Positions 26,116 to 34,316 of a stretch of 39,985 nucleotides of DNA are shown here, in pieces (within the stretch, counting starts at the first letter, position 1; the number at the start of each line of letters is the position of its first letter). The notes under the pieces were generated by a model. The model was not told the origin of the DNA, ran no database searches, and saw only the letters and a list, made by a program, of their open reading frames with translations. The stretch lies in the IMG/VR virus record IMGVR_UViG_2925939204_000007, positions 1 to 39,985 of that record; one strand, given 5' to 3'. Both the position numbers and the translations under genes were made by a program. The stretch is from a virus (Duplodnaviria > Heunggongvirae > Uroviricota > Caudoviricetes).

Positions 26116-26898
26116 TTACCGCGTTATCTGCTTAAGCTGTTTTTCGGCCCAGGACTCTTCGATATCAAATTTCGTGATCAGCAGGTCGTAGAATGGCTTA
26201 ACAGACTTTTTCCAGGTGTCCAGGCTAATGGCGTCAGTAATCTGGCATACAGCAGCATAGGCTTCAGTCGACGGAAGTCGTTCATACCCACGCCCTCCGC
26301 AGCGCTTACAGTCAGCCAGAACAGGAACGCCCTGTTTCTCAGTAAGAGCCTGGTTCACTGCCTTGCCGCGCCCATGGCAATCACTGCAAGAAGCACTAAC
26401 CACACCAGAGCCATTACACTTTTTGCATAGCACTTTGATGGATTCTTTGACCTTCACCATCCCGGACACGGTCATTTTCCCTTCTGGCTTACGGAATTTA
26501 TTGGTAAACACGTCAGCCTCAATGAAGCCCTGACCGTCACAACAATCGCACTGCTTCACGCTGGCAGCGCTGCGGGAATAGTCCTCAAAAGCGAAGGTGG
26601 CCAACTGGTGCATCACCTGAGGTTTAACCGCGGCACCGAGCTTACGCAGTGCGGCAACCTTGTCGCATTTTGTCATCGCGTACTCAGCCAGCAGACCGAT
26701 CGCCCGATCCCGGTCGTTATTGCTTATGCCCATCTTGCCGAGGAAGGCGCTGTAACCCATTGCGGCGCGTTCCTGCGTCATGCCCATGGCAGCCATTATG
26801 TCGGTACCGGTCAGTGAATCGGAGGCGGTAGCGCGCGGAGAATCGCTAATCAGTGTGGATTTAGCGAAGTGGTATTTCACTGTGTTTTCAAGGTTCAT
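26116..26898 (-). CDS. Late-gene antitermination protein Q-like
   Basis: 260 aa; multiple CxxC zinc-finger-like pairs; position downstream of rusA and upstream of the lysis cassette. Confidence 0.75.
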   Translation of the reverse strand: MNLENTVKYHFAKSTLISDSPRATASDSLTGTDIMAAMGMTQERAAMGYSAFLGKMGISNNDRDRAIGLLAEYAMTKCDKVAALRKLGAAVKPQVMHQLATFAFEDYSRSAASVKQCDCCDGQGFIEADVFTNKFRKPEGKMTVSGMVKVKESIKVLCKKCNGSGVVSASCSDCHGRGKAVNQALTEKQGVPVLADCKRCGGRGYERLPSTEAYAAVCQITDAISLDTWKKSVKPFYDLLITKFDIEESWAEKQLKQITR

Positions 26899-27683: not shown

Positions 27684-27890
27684 TCACCCCCACGCCTTGC
27701 TTTGCCATACCCGGCTCGGGCGAGGCGCGTTGTCGCCTTCCGGCAATTGCGCGCTGACGGTCCAGGTGATGTTGTCGCGATTCAGGCTGCGCTCTGTCTT
27801 TACACCGCGCGCCCGGTATTTCTCCACCAGCTCGTCGGCCTGTTCGGTGGTGCATTCGTGATGGTGGAACCAGGAAAATTTCATCGCCAT
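27684..27890 (-). CDS. Small nin-region protein, hypothetical
   Basis: ATG at 27890 overlapping the upstream stop (ATGA); 68 aa. Confidence 0.4.
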   Translation of the reverse strand: MAMKFSWFHHHECTTEQADELVEKYRARGVKTERSLNRDNITWTVSAQLPEGDNAPRPSRVWQSKAWG

Positions 27891-28489
27891 CACCCCGCAA
27901 AGCTCATCAGCTGGGCGGCGGCGTTTTCTGCCTCTTCACAACTGCGAAATGATCGGGAGAGTATCCATCGCCACAGAACATCGAGCGCGGCTTTGTACAG
28001 CTGCTGGAACTCGGTTTCGTCCATGTTAGCGAAGGCAATACTGCGGGGATGTTTGCGAAGTGTTCCGTCAGGAAGCTGAATAGCGTCATAGTGACCAGAC
28101 TCGACGATCACCCAGGCGCGATAAGCATCATAGGATTTGCAGATGCTGATGCTACCGGCGCGCTTATCGGCGATGCGGTCCAGATATTGCTCGGCAGCAT
28201 CCAGCAGTGCGCCTTCGTTTCCACCAAATGCCGCGAGGAATTTAGCATAACCATTTACGAGCTTACGCTCATTGCTGGATATCGCCCCTCCAGTAGGTTC
28301 CCAGTATTCAAACCCGAGATTCAGGAGCGCAAAAAAACGGCGATGGAATGCGGGATTCCTCACCTGGCGAAATTCGGCTACCAGCACGGCGCCGAGTTTG
28401 ATTTTTGATTGCAGAATATCGCTGGTCTCCGGCGTCGCGGGGATCAGGATTCCTGATGACTGCTTGATGAGTTGTAGTTCGTGCGCCAT
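27890..28489 (-). CDS. DUF1367-like nin-region protein
   Basis: 199 aa; position in the nin region. Confidence 0.5.
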   Translation of the reverse strand: MAHELQLIKQSSGILIPATPETSDILQSKIKLGAVLVAEFRQVRNPAFHRRFFALLNLGFEYWEPTGGAISSNERKLVNGYAKFLAAFGGNEGALLDAAEQYLDRIADKRAGSISICKSYDAYRAWVIVESGHYDAIQLPDGTLRKHPRSIAFANMDETEFQQLYKAALDVLWRWILSRSFRSCEEAENAAAQLMSFAG

Positions 28490-28523: not shown

Positions 28524-28772
28524 TCAGACCGTTGATTTCATATTATCAGAAGGTGGGGTTACCCGGTAGCCGAGACGGTGAATAAACTGCATAAAACCAT
28601 TAGGAGTAAAGACCTCTTCATCATCCAGCAAAGGCCGCATAGAAACCATGCCATTGACGCGATAAATTAGATGCCTGCCCGATGAAGGAAAGCTAAACAC
28701 CACGCAGCCGTCAGACCTTCTTACAATGTCATACCAGTTGTCATCTGACGTTTGCAAAGCTGAATCACTCAC
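28524..28772 (-). CDS. Hypothetical protein downstream of the DinI-like gene (candidate SOS-induced effector)
   Basis: 82 aa; GTG start with AGGGAGAA RBS. Confidence 0.45.
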   Translation of the reverse strand: MSDSALQTSDDNWYDIVRRSDGCVVFSFPSSGRHLIYRVNGMVSMRPLLDDEEVFTPNGFMQFIHRLGYRVTPPSDNMKSTV

Positions 28773-28889
28773 ATTTATGTTCTCCCTTCGAGCGACTAAC
28801 AGACGCGATTAAAGATTGTCGGCAGCAGCATCAGAGGGTTACGCAAATTGCGGTATTCTGATAAATGCGCGCCAGCCTTAAGCGCAATT

Positions 28890-29123
28890 CTAATAAAACC
28901 AGTCGTCAGCGCTTTCCCAGGTTTCCTGGAGGATGGATTCGATTTTCTTTTTATCGTCCTTGTCTCCACCGAAAACACTTAACCCATCGGACCCGGCACG
29001 GCGGATTGTGAGCCTGCAATTGTCATAGTGATCATTCAGGCGCTTAAGCAATTCTTTCTCCAGTGCTGGTACCGCGCCTTTAGGAAGTTCTTTCATGCGA
29101 TCAATGGTTAATTCAACTTTCAT
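28890..29123 (-). CDS. DinI-like DNA-damage-inducible protein
   Basis: 77 aa from ATG 29123; C-terminal KKKIESILQETWESADDWFY matches the DinI signature (ISEILQETWESADDWF). Confidence 0.8.
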   Translation of the reverse strand: MKVELTIDRMKELPKGAVPALEKELLKRLNDHYDNCRLTIRRAGSDGLSVFGGDKDDKKKIESILQETWESADDWFY

Positions 29124-29141
29124 AATGGCCCCCATTGCATT

Positions 29142-29161
29142 TACTGTGTTTTTATACAGTA
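29142..29161 (-). promoter_or_regulatory. LexA (SOS) box TACTGTGTTTTTATACAGTA
   Basis: Perfect CTG-N10-CAG with TACTGT/ACAGTA arms; 18 nt upstream of the DinI-like start codon. Confidence 0.75.
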
Positions 29162-29221
29162 TACCTATGCGCGGAAATGATCAACGCTTTAAGAGCACAA
29201 ATTGTTAATTTTCTGTCAGTA

Positions 29222-29251
29222 GTAAAAAAAGAAAACCCGCCGTAGCGGGTT
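29222..29251 (-). terminator. Rho-independent terminator ending the replication-gene transcript
   Basis: Stem AACCCGC/GCGGGTT (29234-29240 / 29245-29251), loop CGTA, followed on the - strand by a U-rich run. Confidence 0.5.
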
Positions 29252-29268: not shown

Positions 29269-29509
29269 TTACGCCGCTATTTGTTTCTGCTGACAAAGCT
29301 CCGGTAAATTAGCCCTCACCAGTGCCTCGGCGAATGGCGGCGGAACTGCGTTGCCACAACGCGCAACCTGCTTGTCCTTCGCGTACTTCTGCCCCCGATA
29401 GTCCTGATCGATGATGTACCACTCCGGGAAGCCCTGCCAGTTTGGCGTTGTTCAACCCTGGGTTGTTGCGCAGGGCTGCCAGCACCTGCTCACGGATTGT
29501 TATGTTCAT
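29269..29509 (-). pseudogene. Possible remnant of a DNA C5-cytosine methyltransferase 3' end (frameshifted), or small unknown ORF
   Basis: 66-codon ORF from ATG 29509; an alternative frame over 29269-29430 encodes ...GFPEWYIIDQDYRGQKYAKDKQVARCGNAVPPPFAEALV, resembling the C-terminal motif IX-X region of C5-MTases; no intact N-terminal gene. Confidence 0.25.
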
Positions 29510-29510
29510 G

Positions 29511-30200
29511 TCACACCATCCCGTTCGACTTGTTGCGGTTGTACTTGGCCAGCAGCAGCTGGATCGGCGTCGGCCCTTGCTCGGCAGCTGGTGCGGCAAT
29601 AGCCCGGCGTACCGGCGGCACTGGCTTACCCTCGGTGACGCGCCTTTCCCACATGTCCAGCAGATCGCCTGCCTCGCGTGCCAGTTCACCATGCGTTAAC
29701 TGGCGCTCGGTGCTGCGGTGGCGCAATTCTACGCAAATGTGGTACATGACCGGCTGCGACCATGGAAATTGCTCGCTGGAGATGAATTCGAACGAGCGGT
29801 TACGCCAGTCCCAGTATTCGGCGATCACCTGGTCAACGTTGACGCCCAGCGCGCCGCCGCTCTGCTTGCACCAGGCGACAAACTGGCCCGGCGACGGCAG
29901 GAATGGGCGCTCCTGGCGGCGGGCAATGCGCATGCCGGCATCGACCTGAGCCATGGTGTGGATCCCGTTCTCCTGAAACGCCAGCAGCCACTGACGGCGG
30001 AATTCGTTCAGGTCTTCCTGGGTGCGGAAGTTCGCCATGCTGGCCGGGAACGCGGCGCGCAGCTCGTTGAACAGCTTGTTGAATACCTGCGCCACCTGCT
30101 CGACCGGCGCGCACTCCTGGTACTGCTCTGGCAGGTTATGGGCCATGCGGCTCATCTGCTCGCGGTCGTGGTTACGCATCTGCTCTGCAAGAGATTTCAT
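29511..30200 (-). CDS. P: Replication protein P-like (helicase loader)
   Basis: 229 aa; MKSLAEQMRNHDREQMSRMAHNLPEQY... and RRQERPFLPSPGQFVAWC match lambda P as recalled; ATGA overlap with O. Confidence 0.85.
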   Translation of the reverse strand: MKSLAEQMRNHDREQMSRMAHNLPEQYQECAPVEQVAQVFNKLFNELRAAFPASMANFRTQEDLNEFRRQWLLAFQENGIHTMAQVDAGMRIARRQERPFLPSPGQFVAWCKQSGGALGVNVDQVIAEYWDWRNRSFEFISSEQFPWSQPVMYHICVELRHRSTERQLTHGELAREAGDLLDMWERRVTEGKPVPPVRRAIAAPAAEQGPTPIQLLLAKYNRNKSNGMV

Positions 30201-31105
30201 CGGATCACCCCATAGGCCCAGTCAGTGTTGTTGAAGTCCAGATCTGGCTTGACAGCGCGCTGCTCACCTCCGGCGTTACGCTGCATTGTCAGCTTGTCCC
30301 ACTGCTTACGCAGGCTTTCGGGACTCAGGATGTTGGTCTGCCAGAAGTGGTGTTTGCTAGCCCAGTCATACAGCGCGCAGATGTCCTGGTGCGACCGGTT
30401 GTCTATCTGGCGCATCAGGCGAACAGTGTTAGACCAGGAGGTCATGTCCGGGGCTTTGCAGGTTGGGTTAATCAGCTTCACCCTGGAGGAAATCCACTTA
30501 GCTGTCTCGAGGTCTTCAGCAGAGCCCCACTTCGCACCGGATGGTGTGTAGACCGCAGCTTCAGGATGAGTTGATAAAAATTTCTTCAGACGTGCGTCAG
30601 AGGATTCGTCAGAATTCTCGGACGAAGATCTTTTAATACTGTTCTTGTTCTTGTATTGGGTGTCTACCGTTTTCGGGAAGGTTATTCCTGATTTCGGGAA
30701 GGATTTTCCCGTTTTCGGGAATTTTCTTCCCGTTTCCGGTTTGTCTAAAATCCATGCTGAAAGGTCAGTGTTTACACCGACGATTTTCATCATGCCCTGC
30801 TTCTGTGAAAAGATGATTTTGCGTTCTGCGAGAGACTTAAGCGCGTCCGATACATGCGTATCGCTCAGGCCCGTAAGCTCGGCAATAACCGTATTTGTCA
30901 CGCGGTCCTGTTTCTTGTTCCAGCCGTAGGTAAGCCAGATCACCGCCTCAAAACATTGCCATTCCCGGCCTGACAGTCTCAGGCGAGGCTTAAGCTGTTG
31001 GATCTCGTTAGCGACCTTGGTATACCCGTTCGACAGGTCGGCCATACGACCTCCCGGTTGTTCGGTTTTATTTGGGAAATTGAATATTTCAGCGGTATTT
31101 GACAT
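30197..31105 (-). CDS. O: Replication initiator O-like, containing ori iterons
   Basis: ATG at 31105 with GGAGAA RBS; N-terminus MSNTAEIFNFPNK resembles lambda O; repeated FPK(T/S)G peptide encoded by the iterons. Confidence 0.85.
   Translation of the reverse strand: MSNTAEIFNFPNKTEQPGGRMADLSNGYTKVANEIQQLKPRLRLSGREWQCFEAVIWLTYGWNKKQDRVTNTVIAELTGLSDTHVSDALKSLAERKIIFSQKQGMMKIVGVNTDLSAWILDKPETGRKFPKTGKSFPKSGITFPKTVDTQYKNKNSIKRSSSENSDESSDARLKKFLSTHPEAAVYTPSGAKWGSAEDLETAKWISSRVKLINPTCKAPDMTSWSNTVRLMRQIDNRSHQDICALYDWASKHHFWQTNILSPESLRKQWDKLTMQRNAGGEQRAVKPDLDFNNTDWAYGVIR
30625..30745. repeat. Phage replication origin: four iterons (core TTTCGGGAA at 30671, 30692, 30713; TTTCCGG at 30733) at about 21-bp spacing, plus adjacent AT-rich region (30628-30659)
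   Basis: Direct repeats read from the sequence inside the O-like gene; same layout as lambda ori. Confidence 0.65.
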
Positions 31106-31189
31106 ACTGTTCTCCGCAATTACGCACAGTTTTTGCACCTGAAAGCCGTTGGTGTTCGAGCACCGCGGCTTTCGCCATTTCTGAGCCCG

Positions 31190-31747
31190 TCATAGCGCAC
31201 CACCCAGCATCGTTGTAACCATCGCCATAATGGGCGCCACAGAATCAGGTCCGTCCAGGTAGAGCTTGGCTACGATGCTCTCGCTGATTTCCTTCATCCG
31301 TTCGTGTCTGGGGGCTTTGAGGACGACAGCCTGTATCGCCTCAGCGTCTTCTTTCACCGACCTGGCGACACGAACCGCAAAGCAGTCGTGCTTAATCACG
31401 CGATCCCGGTACGCCAGCGGCAGAACCGAAATTATTACCGGCGCCAGCTGCTCGACGTTCGCCCGGTAGGCCGGTGATTTCTCGTGGTTGTCCAGCCAGC
31501 GAAACAGCTTCACGTTCCACACATCGGCGCTGCCGGTCATGTCAATGCTGTCAAGCTCGGCCTGTTCGGCAGCCTCTTTAATCGCCAGAGCGACCGCCAC
31601 GCGGCCCTCTGCCGCCGCCCAGGCGCGGACGGCAGAACAGATAGCCCGGTGATCGACCGGCTGGCCTTCAGCCTCACTGTGTTGATACTGGAATTTCAGG
31701 TGCTCTGATGGCGCTCTGTTATTCTGTTGAAAAGAAAGTGTTTGCAT
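31190..31747 (-). CDS. CII-like / YdaT-family early regulatory protein (putative)
   Basis: 185 aa; AGGAG RBS; position between the cro-like gene and O. Confidence 0.45.
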   Translation of the reverse strand: MQTLSFQQNNRAPSEHLKFQYQHSEAEGQPVDHRAICSAVRAWAAAEGRVAVALAIKEAAEQAELDSIDMTGSADVWNVKLFRWLDNHEKSPAYRANVEQLAPVIISVLPLAYRDRVIKHDCFAVRVARSVKEDAEAIQAVVLKAPRHERMKEISESIVAKLYLDGPDSVAPIMAMVTTMLGGAL

Positions 31748-31758
31748 TGTCAGTGCTC

Positions 31759-31977
31759 CTACTTTGGTAATCCGTCAGTGGGATTTGGATAGAGATCAGG
31801 GCGCAGCTCGTGGGGGGTTACGCCTGTCATTTTGAAAATCGGGAAGATATAGCTTGGCGGGACGATCCCTTGGTCACGATTCTTCCAATGACTTACAGAC
31901 ATACTCGTCACACCAAGCGCGATGCTGAGCTTTCTGGCAGAGCCAGCGGCTTTAATTGCTTTATCGAGTGCGGACAT
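31759..31977 (-). CDS. Cro-like HTH regulator (YdaS/Cro family)
   Basis: 72 aa; HTH (GSARKLSIALGVTSMSVSHWKNR); divergent from the repressor; AGGAGAAG RBS. Confidence 0.7.
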   Translation of the reverse strand: MSALDKAIKAAGSARKLSIALGVTSMSVSHWKNRDQGIVPPSYIFPIFKMTGVTPHELRPDLYPNPTDGLPK

Positions 31978-32035
31978 GTGCTTCTCCTGCTTATTGATAG
32001 CAGAAGTAAACCACAGATTTATACTTCATGCAAAC

Positions 32036-32063
32036 TTTGGATTTATTGCGTGCATAAACCAAA
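32036..32063. promoter_or_regulatory. Candidate operator palindrome in the divergent switch region (TTTGGATTTATTGCGTGCATAAACCAAA)
   Basis: Imperfect inverted repeat; overlaps a PRM-like promoter (-35 TTGCGT 32046-32051, -10 TACAAT 32068-32073) that would give a leaderless repressor mRNA; ATAAACCA recurs in the spacer of the promoter at 33518. Confidence 0.35.
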
Positions 32064-32079
32064 TATTTACAATGACCAT

Positions 32080-32469
32080 ATGAGAAAAGAAGAACCCAAC
32101 CTCGTTCTGGTGGAGCGCCTTACTGAGATCACTGATCGCGGCGTTACCAAAGCAGACATGGCAAGAATAGCTGGAGTCACCCCTCAGGCCGTAAACGGCT
32201 GGTTCAAAAAAGGCGTGATTAGTAAGAAATCGGCACTGGCCATAGCCGACGCTGTTGGTATTTCTGTCGCCTGGCTACTCGGTGAAGACGTTGGGGAGAA
32301 AGACGGTCTCAAACCGGACGAACAGCGTTTGCTCGAGCTCTACCGCCAGTTACCGGAAGAAGAGCAGCAGAACATGCTCCGCATTTTTGCGCTTCGCCTG
32401 AAAGAGTTAGATGAGCTGTACGAGAAGTACATGAAGGGTCGGATTCGATCGCAAGGTGAGCAAACCTAA
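32080..32469 (+). CDS. Prophage repressor, short XRE-family HTH protein without peptidase domain
   Basis: 129 aa; HTH (VTKADMARIAGVTPQAVNGWFKKG); no S24 autoprotease C-terminal domain; divergent from the cro-like gene. Confidence 0.75.
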   Translation: MRKEEPNLVLVERLTEITDRGVTKADMARIAGVTPQAVNGWFKKGVISKKSALAIADAVGISVAWLLGEDVGEKDGLKPDEQRLLELYRQLPEEEQQNMLRIFALRLKELDELYEKYMKGRIRSQGEQT

Positions 32470-32533
32470 ACCAGTAGTATCTAATTCCATGTAATAAAAA
32501 TATTTCAAGATTTAATATCTTCTGGAGGATTCG

Positions 32534-32815
32534 GTGTCTAAAGAAACAACCGTCGAACTTATGCATCTTAATGATGTAATCGAAGCGAAAAATTTCATCG
32601 AGACCAATGCTGACGGTGTCGTAACAATCGGCACACAAAATGCCGGTTACGAAGTTTACAATTTTGTGTTCCTGAATAGCAGCCCGATCATCGGTACGGA
32701 TAATGCGGATATAGTCGTCAAGGGCATGCAGCGAACCAAAGTTGTGTCTGTGACTTTAAGCAAACAAAAGGCTTATGATTTTTATCAATCCTTAAAAAGT
32801 ATGTTTGAGGAATAA
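32534..32815 (+). CDS. Hypothetical protein, first gene of AT-rich cassette downstream of the repressor
   Basis: 93 aa; GTG start with GGAGG RBS 5 nt upstream; no terminator between the repressor stop and this gene; 14 G/C in 60 nt at 32761-32820. Confidence 0.6.
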   Translation: MSKETTVELMHLNDVIEAKNFIETNADGVVTIGTQNAGYEVYNFVFLNSSPIIGTDNADIVVKGMQRTKVVSVTLSKQKAYDFYQSLKSMFEE

Positions 32816-32821
32816 TAATTG

Positions 32822-33343
32822 ATGGATGCGGCTCAATCATCTCTTGGTGAAGGGAAGTTATTGATTGCATATTCAGACCATAGCGGAGCTACAGTAGGCT
32901 TAGAGTTTTCATCAGTAGCTTCGAGCCAAGCAACCTTCCTTATGGGTGCTTGTAGTTTTGCCGCTTCGGATAAACAAAAACGGATTGTCACATCAGTTGC
33001 TATGGATGATACTGAAATCATTCATACGTCAACTGAAGATGGAGGTGACGACATGGAAAAGAGATTGGCTATTCTTGAGGTTGAAGTTGCCCACATCAAG
33101 AAAGATGTTGCCGAGATAAAAAACACAGTTTCAAAAGTTGATACGACAGTGAATTCACTGGACAAAAATATGGCTGTAGTTTTGGAGAGGCTGTCTAGTA
33201 TCAAAGAGTCTGTAGACAAAAAGCCCTCATCAGACACAGTGGACAAGAAAATCTCTGATGCTAAATTGGCGATTCTCTTAGGTGTCCCTGCGATTATCGC
33301 CATTGGTACAGGGCTGTACAAAGCTTTTATGCACTTCTTTTAG
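32822..33343 (+). CDS. Coiled-coil protein with C-terminal transmembrane anchor (XhlA-like architecture), second gene of cassette
   Basis: 173 aa; start 6 nt after the gene-1 stop; coiled-coil region (EKRLAILEVEVAHIKKDVAEIKNTVSKVDTTVNSLDKNMAVVLERLSSIKESV) then hydrophobic tail LAILLGVPAIIAIGTGLYKAFMHFF; followed by a strong terminator. Confidence 0.65.
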   Translation: MDAAQSSLGEGKLLIAYSDHSGATVGLEFSSVASSQATFLMGACSFAASDKQKRIVTSVAMDDTEIIHTSTEDGGDDMEKRLAILEVEVAHIKKDVAEIKNTVSKVDTTVNSLDKNMAVVLERLSSIKESVDKKPSSDTVDKKISDAKLAILLGVPAIIAIGTGLYKAFMHFF

Positions 33344-33416
33344 TCAGATTTGGTCAATACGCCTGAGTTATAAGGCTCTCAGCTACTAACTCTGTCGCCT
33401 TCCCCGAACCTTCTCA

Positions 33417-33443
33417 TCCCGACCACGCGTCGGGATTTTTTTT
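33417..33443 (+). terminator. Rho-independent terminator ending the repressor-cassette transcript
   Basis: Stem TCCCGAC/GTCGGGA with loop CACGC, followed by T8. Confidence 0.7.
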
Positions 33444-33517
33444 GCCTGCGATTCTGCAGACGTGTCACAAAACCCAGCCACATAAACCTCAGATTTACAA
33501 TTAACACCAACCTTAAG

Positions 33518-33546
33518 TTGACATGTATATAAACCAGTGATTTAAT
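33518..33546 (+). promoter_or_regulatory. Sigma70-like promoter for the rightward early operon (-35 TTGACA, 17-nt spacer, -10 TTTAAT)
   Basis: Consensus -35 hexamer at 33518-33523; spacer contains ATAAACCA, also present in the switch region; about 250-nt leader before the first gene. Confidence 0.5.
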
Positions 33547-33798
33547 CTAACTCACCAAGACGCACCACGAACCACCCAGGCATGGAGCCCACGAAGTAGC
33601 CGTCCGGGGCATACGAAAACCGGAATGAGGTGGTGATATTAACGCGCAGTAGGTTTGAAACGTTCCGCCAGCCTGGCGACAAGGGCAAACACAGAAGTGA
33701 GCTTCGCGGTGGTGAATTGCAGAGTTAAAACGCTCAACTGTGAAGATCAGCGTCACGGCACCACCAGCGAAGTTCACTCAGCAATAGTGGAGAACATC

Positions 33799-34005
33799 AT
33801 GGTTCATCAGCACTACGGTACACAGACAGTAAACCGCGGCGCAGTTCAGCCGGGGATGCTTGTAAAACACAAAGACTCAACCTGGACCGCATCTGCTAAC
33901 GCACGCGGTCGCCTGTATCTTCACCGTGGCATCGAACGTACCTACACCAAAGATTTGCTGGTTGAGGTTTATCTAAACGGTTTAGGACATGGCCTTAGCC
34001 ATTAA
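33799..34005 (+). CDS. Hypothetical small early protein
   Basis: 68 aa from ATG 33799 (GGAG 5 nt upstream); the ORF track extends the frame to a TTG at 33655. Confidence 0.45.
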   Translation: MVHQHYGTQTVNRGAVQPGMLVKHKDSTWTASANARGRLYLHRGIERTYTKDLLVEVYLNGLGHGLSH

Positions 34006-34016
34006 CGGAGTGAGTT

Positions 34017-34178
34017 ATGCAGGAGAAAAAATGCGCGTACTGCCGCAAGCCGATCAAGCAAGGGAAGGAAGTTAAAAACGAACTGCTCTTTATCCACGGC
34101 ACGCAGTTGAAACGCGAGCAACGTGATTACTGTTCAGTACGTTGCGCTTCGTTCGACCAGATGGCCCACGAAGCATAA
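34017..34178 (+). CDS. Small zinc-ribbon-like protein (53 aa)
   Basis: Not in the ORF track; GGAGTGAG RBS; MQEKKCAYCRKPIKQGKEVKNELLFIHGTQLKREQRDYCSVRCASFDQMAHEA with CxxC...CxxxC. Confidence 0.4.
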   Translation: MQEKKCAYCRKPIKQGKEVKNELLFIHGTQLKREQRDYCSVRCASFDQMAHEA

Positions 34179-34316
34179 CGAAAACCCCGCGCAAGGCGGG
34201 ATTCACGTCCGGTGCCACCGACCAAAGTTACACCGGAATTTATACCAAACCAAAAAACATCCAATGGGCGCTATCTCTGGCCCGGGGATTCTAACACTCA
34301 AAAAAGAGGATCTCAC

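Follow-up and report, generated by a model that had tools for sequence, protein, structure and literature searches.

A predicted LexA-controlled operon with a GfoA-type antirepressor gene suggests a Gifsy-type induction switch in a lambdoid prophage

The DNA analysed here, termed the window throughout, is a stretch of 39,985 bp corresponding to the IMG/VR virus record IMGVR_UViG_2925939204_000007 (Caudoviricetes). This lambdoid element encodes, among others, an integrase, RecET, the replication proteins O and P, the antiterminator Q, and lysis, terminase and structural proteins. All genes of its early-right region lie on the minus strand. Divergently from the repressor gene, which occupies 32080..32469 of the plus strand, this region begins with a cro-like gene of the YdaS family (31759..31977; PF15943, E 1.4e-13; phrog_35), followed by a cII-like gene of the YdaT family (31190-31747), the replication genes O (30197-31138) and P (29511-30200), both assigned by Pfam and PHROGs, and the C-terminal remnant of a cytosine methylase gene (about 29270-29440), which was recognized from the sequence and from the annotation of a near-identical E. 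coli prophage. Beyond an intrinsic terminator and a LexA box lie a dinI homologue (28890..29123), a spacer of 117 nt (28773..28889), an ORF of 82 codons (28524..28772) and an irsA homologue that encodes a DUF1367 protein of 199 residues (27890..28489; PF07105, E 3.4e-92). Three small nin-type genes and then rusA extend to 27032, as judged from the gene list and the annotation of the near-identical prophage, and the gene for antiterminator Q (26116..26898; PF03589, E 2.2e-45) lies downstream in the same orientation.

The SOS control region is compact. The LexA box TACTGTGTTTTTATACAGTA at 29142-29161 has a perfect CTGT-N8-ACAG core with TA flanks and is the sole zero-mismatch occurrence of TACTGT-N8-ACAGTA in the window. 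Three further matches were found in the window, all with two mismatches and each with a broken core half-site, compared with a mean of 0.61 matches at two or fewer mismatches in shuffled sequence; by simple arithmetic, a perfect palindrome of 12 specified bases is expected about 0.002 times per 40 kb. Read on the minus strand, in the direction of the genes, the box is TACTGTATAAAAACACAGTA, and its end is separated from the ATG of dinI by 18 nt. Directly upstream of the SOS promoter, the intrinsic terminator (29224..29251, minus strand) consists of the stem AACCCGCTACGGCGGGTT at 29251-29234, with 7 pairs of which 5 are G-C, and the subsequent T-run TTCTTTTTTT (minus strand), and it closes the replication-gene transcript. 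A putative sigma-70 promoter, the equivalent of PdinI-gfoA, can be read from the sequence at 29156..29184 (minus strand). It comprises a -35 hexamer TTGATC (29184-29179), a 17-nt spacer and a -10 hexamer TACTGT (29161-29156), with TATACT (29163-29158) as an alternative -10, so that the LexA box starts on the most plausible -10 hexamer. This assignment was inferred by comparison with the Gifsy-2 promoter, which has the same geometry and the -35 hexamer TTGAAT, and with p95 of phage 186, whose annotated -10 starts at the same base as the LexA site. A scan with a strict sigma-70 consensus found no promoter between 25.8 and 32.6 kb, and the hexamers of the PdinI equivalent are weak and below consensus.

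Downstream of this control region, no minus-strand intrinsic terminator was found in a scan from 29234 to 26019, beyond Q, Rho-dependent termination being invisible to such a scan. From the 82-aa ORF to Q the genes overlap or are separated by gaps of at most 34 nt. A sequence-only reading of this DNA had pointed to a perfect LexA box just upstream of a DinI-like gene, a terminator ahead of it and no terminator-like hairpin between the DinI-like gene and Q; all of these were borne out, the box being in addition unique in the window.

The dinI homologue, which would be the first gene of a LexA-controlled operon, encodes 77 residues and belongs to the DinI family, with a match to PF06183 (E 1.7e-26) that covers positions 1-63 of the 63-position profile; it also falls in phrog_189. 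At 91.8 bits it does not reach the NCBIfam equivalog cut-off of 111 bits set for chromosomal DinI, and a phage paralogue is expected to score below it. The 117-nt spacer between dinI and the 82-aa ORF carries the Shine-Dalgarno sequence of the latter and is about 90% identical to the spacer of Gifsy-1 and Gifsy-2. Given the conservation with Gifsy-2, the spacer was checked for RNA structure. A structured RNA or attenuator was rejected, since the fold energy did not improve on that of shuffles (z -0.28), no Rfam family matched and the spacer is absent in three related phages.

The 82-aa ORF starts with GTG at 28772-28770, preceded 8 nt upstream by the Shine-Dalgarno sequence GGGAGA. Primer mapping and homology identify it as a GfoA-type antirepressor gene. 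The protein matched no Pfam or NCBIfam family, the PHROG that it does match, phrog_340, is described as of "unknown function", and the RefSeq label is "hypothetical protein". Its AlphaFold model, of modest confidence (pLDDT 68), contains four strands and one helix; a Foldseek search of the model against the PDB returned nothing with E below 1, and a PDB search with the sequence gave no match. Across the family, identity to the window protein falls to about 37-41%, and the invariant residues include Tyr14, Asp21, Pro29, Leu35, Tyr37, Ser44 and the pair Gly68-Tyr69. Eight of nine distinct homologues have a non-canonical start, GTG or TTG. We considered whether an ATG-TGA start-stop that overlaps the GTG (28772-28776) has a conserved role in translation. 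Phage mEp237 has it, SEN34 and the gfoR-linked contigs described below, which have TTG starts, lack it, and the idea was dropped.

The repressor consists of 129 residues, and Pfam matched only HTH families in it, with no match to Peptidase_S24. In the AlphaFold model (pLDDT 84.5), five helices make up the HTH domain (residues 8-66), and a linker connects it to a C-terminal helical module (79-127) formed by the helix pair 79-89 and 93-127. Structural matches to the DNA-binding domains of the P22 c2 and 434 repressors are confined to the HTH part. Repeated short matches of residues 71-93 to polyubiquitin PDB sequences were treated as artefacts. The repressor fits the GfoR/GfhR/GtgR (DicA/RacR) group of short HTH proteins and shows weak full-length resemblance to DicA, a resemblance that has been stated for this repressor family (Lemire et al. 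2011, PMC3121763). A self-cleaving repressor of the lambda CI/LexA type was rejected, given the lack of an S24 match and a model composed of the HTH and two helices only. A second, S24-containing repressor or an antirepressor of the Ant/KilA type was also sought and rejected: no such family appeared in the protein-by-protein scan of ORFs beside the repressor, and the near-identical E. coli prophage has none in its annotation. In the intergenic region between repressor and cro, candidate operators lie within 32007..32069, namely TAAACCACAGATTTA at 32007-32021 and TAAACCAAATATTTA at 32055-32069; they are imperfect palindromes and belong to one family of 15-nt direct repeats.

This arrangement is known from the Gifsy prophages of Salmonella. 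In Gifsy-1, -2 and -3, the replication genes are followed by a LexA box that adjoins a dinI homologue (Lemire, Figueroa-Bossi and Bossi 2011, PLoS Genet, PMC3121763). According to the same study, a terminator-like palindrome precedes the box in all three prophages, and the antirepressor (GfoA, GfhA or GftA) is the product of a small ORF that is flanked by dinI and irsA and has a non-canonical start codon; the repressors GfoR, GfhR and GtgR are short and are not cleaved. GfoA of Gifsy-1 was shown experimentally to bind GfoR and to release it from DNA, and the antirepressor-repressor complex is an A2B2 assembly (PMC3121763). Expression of gfoA alone under PBAD induces Gifsy-1 and Gifsy-3, and lexA3 blocks induction (PMC3121763). 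GfoR and GfhR are only 66.4% similar and recognize different operators, yet both are inactivated by GfoA, while GtgR is insensitive to it (PMC3121763). Two further studies bear on the promoter: nalidixic acid raises the Gifsy dinI genes, whose boxes are 19 bp from the ATG, by 14-23 fold (PMC8072944), and S. Typhimurium D23580 fails to produce Gifsy-1 owing to one SNP in the -10 of PdinI-gfoA, the repair of which restores the phage (PMC5322425). Homologues of gfoR/gtgR and of the dinI-irsA region had already been noted in E. coli, Citrobacter, Klebsiella and Enterobacter (PMC3121763).

As a test of orthology, oligonucleotides from the text and Table S1 of Lemire et al. were mapped onto the window, where the Gifsy primers fell in register. 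The gfoA start primer maps to 28772-28749 with 3 mismatches in 24 positions, one of which is the engineered ATG, and the gfoA end primer to 28581-28542 with 5 in 40. The Gifsy-1 irsA start primer maps to 28496-28457 (4/40 mismatches), the dinI end primer, from the 3' end of Gifsy-2 dinI, to 28932-28893 (3/40) and the gfoR end primer to 32420-32460 (8/41). The published gfoA 3' primers end in GATATA, at a point where GATAAT is found in the window and on the viral contigs; the GfoA tested in those experiments may therefore differ by a few residues at its very C-terminus.

To obtain authentic sequences, IMG/VR was searched with the gfoR start primer. Seven of the ten contigs retrieved match both gfoR primers exactly, which yields a GfoR sequence of 131 residues. 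Two gfoR contigs carry a linked TTG-initiated ORF, which is 91% identical over 82 aa to the window ORF, and on these contigs the LexA box lies 392 nt upstream of the antirepressor ORF versus 389 nt in the window. By sequence, then, the 82-aa ORF is an orthologue of GfoA. With GfoR, the window repressor shares 62% identity and 84% similarity (E 2e-54) as well as the C-terminus (...EKYMKGRIR...). This similarity is comparable to that between GfoR and GfhR, which plausibly places the window repressor within the known range of the antirepressor. Gifsy-1 and Gifsy-3 present the same layout as the window, that is, a terminator, a LexA box over the -10, dinI, an antirepressor gene with a non-AUG start and irsA, and in both cases the operon follows the replication genes, precedes the nin genes and Q and lies outside the immunity region. 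The differences are that the HTH domain of the window repressor is only about 52% identical to that of GfoR, which implies a different immunity specificity, that the antirepressor starts with GTG instead of TTG, and that the host background differs, the closest relatives of the window being the E. coli phage mEp237 and E. coli prophages.

Other known systems resemble the window to various degrees. The dinI-gftA operon of Gifsy-2, with its repressor GtgR, and that of Fels-1, with FsoA, have the same operon layout and LexA box position as the window, and the end of Gifsy-2 dinI together with the dinI-antirepressor spacer is about 90% identical to the window at the DNA level. In contrast, GtgR is only 26% identical to the window repressor. 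BLASTP did not align GftA with the 82-aa ORF, hhalign matched their profiles weakly in a collinear stretch of 64 columns (probability 46%, E 2e-4), and the two belong to different PHROGs, the 82-aa ORF to 340 and GftA to 4847. Coliphage 186, a P2-like phage as opposed to the lambdoid element studied here, has a promoter that LexA represses from a box beginning at the -10 and that drives an antirepressor against a non-cleavable repressor, as proposed here. Its antirepressor Tum blocks DNA binding by the repressor, and a DinI-like sequence is part of the unit, with the antirepressor and DinI-like parts fused and the antirepressor half first; in the window the genes are separate and dinI comes first. 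Homology between the 82-aa ORF and the antirepressor half of Tum was rejected (hhalign probability 0.3%). Lambda CI and P22 C2 share with the proposed system an SOS- and RecA-dependent induction, but they are proteins of 216-237 aa that are inactivated by cleavage, whereas the 129-aa window repressor has neither an S24 peptidase nor an oligomerisation domain and would be inactivated by sequestration.

The closest phage is E. coli mEp237, with 96.9% DNA identity over the module, followed by Salmonella SEN34 with 85%. A tblastn search with the antirepressor retrieved 17 phage records, 15 of which are among the 36 records with a repressor homologue. We compared ten loci, namely the window, mEp237, LT2 Gifsy-1, Gifsy-2, SEN34, Klebsiella ST974-OXA48phi18.2, E. 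coli PHB10, Citrobacter Chris1, Salmonella SPN3UB and Aeromonas pAEv1818. The gene order dinI, small ORF, DUF1367 is kept in all ten, pAEv1818 included, and each has a LexA box at a distance of 35-40 nt ahead of the true dinI ATG. Most of the ten also have a hairpin and T-run before the box, in the form of the motif AACCCGCnnCGGCGGGTT or an equivalent (e.g. in pAEv1818). Among 5,426 complete E. coli genomes, 50 hold the module at 95% identity or more, and every record listed of those 50 is annotated "hypothetical protein | DinI family protein".

We also compared how antirepressor and repressor, whose contact surface Lemire et al. left unmapped (PMC3121763), vary together. Thirteen repressor/antirepressor pairs gave 78 pairwise comparisons; as the genomes are related and mosaic, the statistics are to be read as indicative. 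Antirepressor identity correlated with identity of the repressor C-terminal module with a Pearson r of 0.83 (Mantel p 5e-5) and with that of the HTH domain with an r of 0.60 (Mantel p 0.0013). The partial correlation with the C-terminal module was 0.72 when the HTH domain was controlled for, and that with the HTH domain was -0.07 when the C-terminal module was controlled for. Individual genomes follow the same pattern. The Klebsiella phage Kp4865-4 is a natural domain swap, in which the HTH domain is window-like (77% identity), and Chris1 and pAEv1818 have the most similar type of both C-terminal module and antirepressor. The opposite combination occurs in the E. coli prophage of GPEC60-12-649 and on the contigs that carry GfoR, where identity to the window is only about 52% for the HTH domain but 78-80% for the C-terminal module and 91-99% for the antirepressor. 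These comparisons indicate that the type of antirepressor follows the C-terminal helical module of the repressor and not its HTH domain. The covariation would fit docking of the antirepressor on the C-terminal module, which, if true, would explain how GfoA acts on heteroimmune repressors, and it suggests that partners in cross-talk are predictable from sequence. It is a small addition to the published Gifsy work.

Taken together, these data make it very likely that the locus induces the prophage through a LexA-gated antirepressor switch of the Gifsy type. In the proposed model, host LexA bound to the box overlapping the -10 would keep the dinI, antirepressor and irsA operon silent in the lysogen, and the terminator before the promoter would insulate the operon from the replication-gene transcript. 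Upon DNA damage, activated RecA would promote self-cleavage of LexA and the operon would be transcribed. The GfoA-type protein, translated from a weak GTG start, would bind the 129-aa HTH repressor, probably in a 2:2 complex and probably via the C-terminal helical module. The repressor would then leave the operators between the repressor and cro genes, allowing lytic transcription. The antirepressor could also act in trans on heteroimmune prophages whose repressors have a common C-terminal module. As the repressor would be sequestered and not cleaved, the switch would in principle be reversible. For this prophage, LexA binding and SOS induction, as well as antirepressor-repressor binding and the specificity of the pairing, are inferred by homology. 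The sequence-only reading had described a short HTH repressor devoid of an S24 domain and proposed that the LexA-controlled transcript supplies an antirepressor against this non-cleavable protein, as in Gifsy and 186-type phages. The 129-aa length and the HTH-only matches agree with the former point, and the 91% identity of the 82-aa ORF to a GfoA-type protein, a repressor of the GfoR/GfhR family and the published layout support the latter.

That reading had left the DinI-like protein and the 82-aa ORF as joint candidates for the antirepressor. Only the 82-aa ORF holds up, since non-polar deletions of dinI, like those of irsA, leave Gifsy induction unaffected (PMC3121763). To judge from these deletions, dinI and irsA are dispensable for induction in Gifsy, though they are universally co-conserved with the antirepressor. 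A reading in which the DinI homologue is itself the SOS effector, acting on RecA filaments or on the repressor, with the small ORF incidental, could appeal to the position of dinI as the first gene after the LexA box, to its being the best conserved, and to the DinI-like half of 186 Tum. We nevertheless consider it extremely improbable. Besides the deletions, mapping in Gifsy placed the minimal inducing segment in the interval that separates dinI from irsA, induction was lost when the small ORF carried a frameshift, and expression of gftA or gfoA from PBAD sufficed on its own (PMC3121763); the identity of the 82-aa ORF to a GfoA-type protein also argues against DinI as the effector. A further reading holds that the prophage is defective and the module a remnant that has decayed or lost its function, conserved only by recent descent, with induction failing or taking another route. 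All parts of the module are intact, however, including the perfect LexA box, the open reading frames and the Shine-Dalgarno sequences; the window carries the full range of genes from integrase and recET to terminase and structural genes; and the module is kept across genera despite diverged sequences, which argues for selection. A truncated methylase gene does adjoin the module, and a single promoter SNP silences the equivalent module in Salmonella D23580 (PMC5322425), but on balance decay seems very improbable.

The path toward Q deserves separate consideration. The LexA promoter might mainly provide a repressor-independent route via the nin region to Q and lysis, with the antirepressor secondary: intrinsic terminators were not detected on the minus strand from 29234 to the end of Q, the gaps do not exceed 34 nt, and the strong terminator upstream of the SOS promoter would block pR transcripts. 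Yet GfoA supplied in trans leads to lysis and high titres in Gifsy-1 and Gifsy-3 without DNA damage, so Q can be expressed there without cleavage of LexA, and Gifsy needs no read-through into Q to produce phage; in addition, the operon given by Lemire et al. consists of dinI, antirepressor and irsA (PMC3121763). We thus regard this route as improbable in the role of main pathway. The same features, a terminator upstream, no intrinsic terminator before Q and short gaps, leave room for read-through into Q, and the SOS promoter transcript could also run through the nin genes as a second, repressor-independent SOS input alongside the antirepressor switch. This addition appears rather unlikely, though less so; if true, it would affect the timing of lysis or the commitment to it.

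In summary, the antirepressor switch proposed for this prophage follows a mechanism that is already known and has been dissected in Gifsy, and the window represents a further member, a rediscovery. Since no Pfam or NCBIfam model exists for the antirepressor family and its members are labelled hypothetical, annotation fails to reveal prophage inducibility and cross-induction; this is an annotation gap and not a discovery. It is established that many lambdoid enterobacterial prophages are induced by LexA-controlled antirepressors and not by repressor cleavage, and induction of this kind is reversible and lets one prophage induce others.

Repressor and antirepressor sequences were compared in 13 phage pairs, with the window repressor (32080-32469) and antirepressor (28524-28772) set against the compared loci L001, L002, L004-L010, L012, L022, L024-L030 and L032-L033. 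In the 13 pairs, identity of the C-terminal helical module of the repressor tracks antirepressor identity (Pearson r 0.83, Mantel p 5e-5, partial r 0.72), whereas that of the HTH domain does not (partial r -0.07). Moreover, the repressor of Klebsiella phage Kp4865-4 represents a natural domain swap. Covariation with the module rather than with the HTH domain, together with this swap, suggests that the C-terminal module is the docking site of the antirepressor, a contact that was not mapped on the repressor in the 2011 Gifsy study (PMC3121763).

The repressor locus itself varies among relatives. The window has a single HTH gene at this locus, in contrast to the two adjoining HTH genes in both E. 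coli phage mEp237 (gp38 and gp39; L001:1784-2663) and Salmonella phage SEN34 (SEN34_42 and SEN34_43; L024). Both mEp237 proteins are GfoR-like; their HTH domains differ, and they have the conserved C-terminal module in common. In the window, a GTG in frame with the repressor ATG is found 30 nt before it (32050-32079), and many database homologues are annotated with a length of 137-139 residues. The possible N-terminal extension, within which the candidate operator 32055-32069 falls, is reminiscent of GfhR*, the N-terminally extended form of the Gifsy-3 repressor that appears on induction. An E. coli prophage that is 99% identical elsewhere does not share window 32469-34200, downstream of the repressor, in the segment compared with it (L010:13465-15900). 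In the window this stretch contains one ORF of 93 residues, one of 174 residues that encodes a coiled coil, and one that is Kil-like (33655-34005). The prophage has another repressor there, together with genes for a YoaK-like peptide and the HicAB toxin-antitoxin system. Such a difference is typical immunity-region mosaicism.

Mosaicism is also seen at the antirepressor gene. The end of dinI and the following 117-nt spacer, which together span 28773-28935, are about 90% identical to Gifsy-1 and Gifsy-2 DNA, and the antirepressor genes beyond them show no relatedness by BLAST, which, on sequence grounds, places a mosaic recombination joint exactly at the antirepressor start. The spacer, which gave no RNA-structure signal (z -0.28), is missing in Chris1, SPN3UB and pAEv1818. 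Elsewhere, on the minus strand, the remains of a DNA cytosine-5 methyltransferase gene (about 29270-29440) separate replication gene P from the terminator. They comprise the C-terminal end without the N-terminal part, and the annotation of the near-identical E. coli prophage lists their counterpart as a pseudogene.

Of the nine distinct antirepressor genes of the GfoA/GftA family, eight have GTG or TTG as start codon (window 28770-28772; L002:5158, L004:1501, L005:1501, L006:1477, L007:1468 and L009:1498 in the compared loci), SPN3UB being the sole ATG-start case. A weak start codon looks like a conserved trait of these genes, and may serve to keep the basal antirepressor level low. An ATG-TGA start-stop mini-ORF (28772-28776, minus strand, ATGTG) overlaps the antirepressor GTG by one base and shares its Shine-Dalgarno sequence. 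The mini-ORF also occurs in mEp237 and is probably incidental, because it is absent from SEN34 and the gfoR-linked viral contigs.

At the other end of the gene, the two gfoA 3' primers of the 2011 study, le163 and pp867, both have the terminal ...TCTGATATA, whereas ...TCTGATAATATG... stands at this place in the window (28542-28547), in SEN34 and in the gfoR-linked viral contigs; the primer comparison included locus L012. Because of this difference, GfoA of strain 14028, as tested, may end a few residues sooner (...PPSDI). If so, the last ~5 residues of the 82-residue protein would be dispensable.
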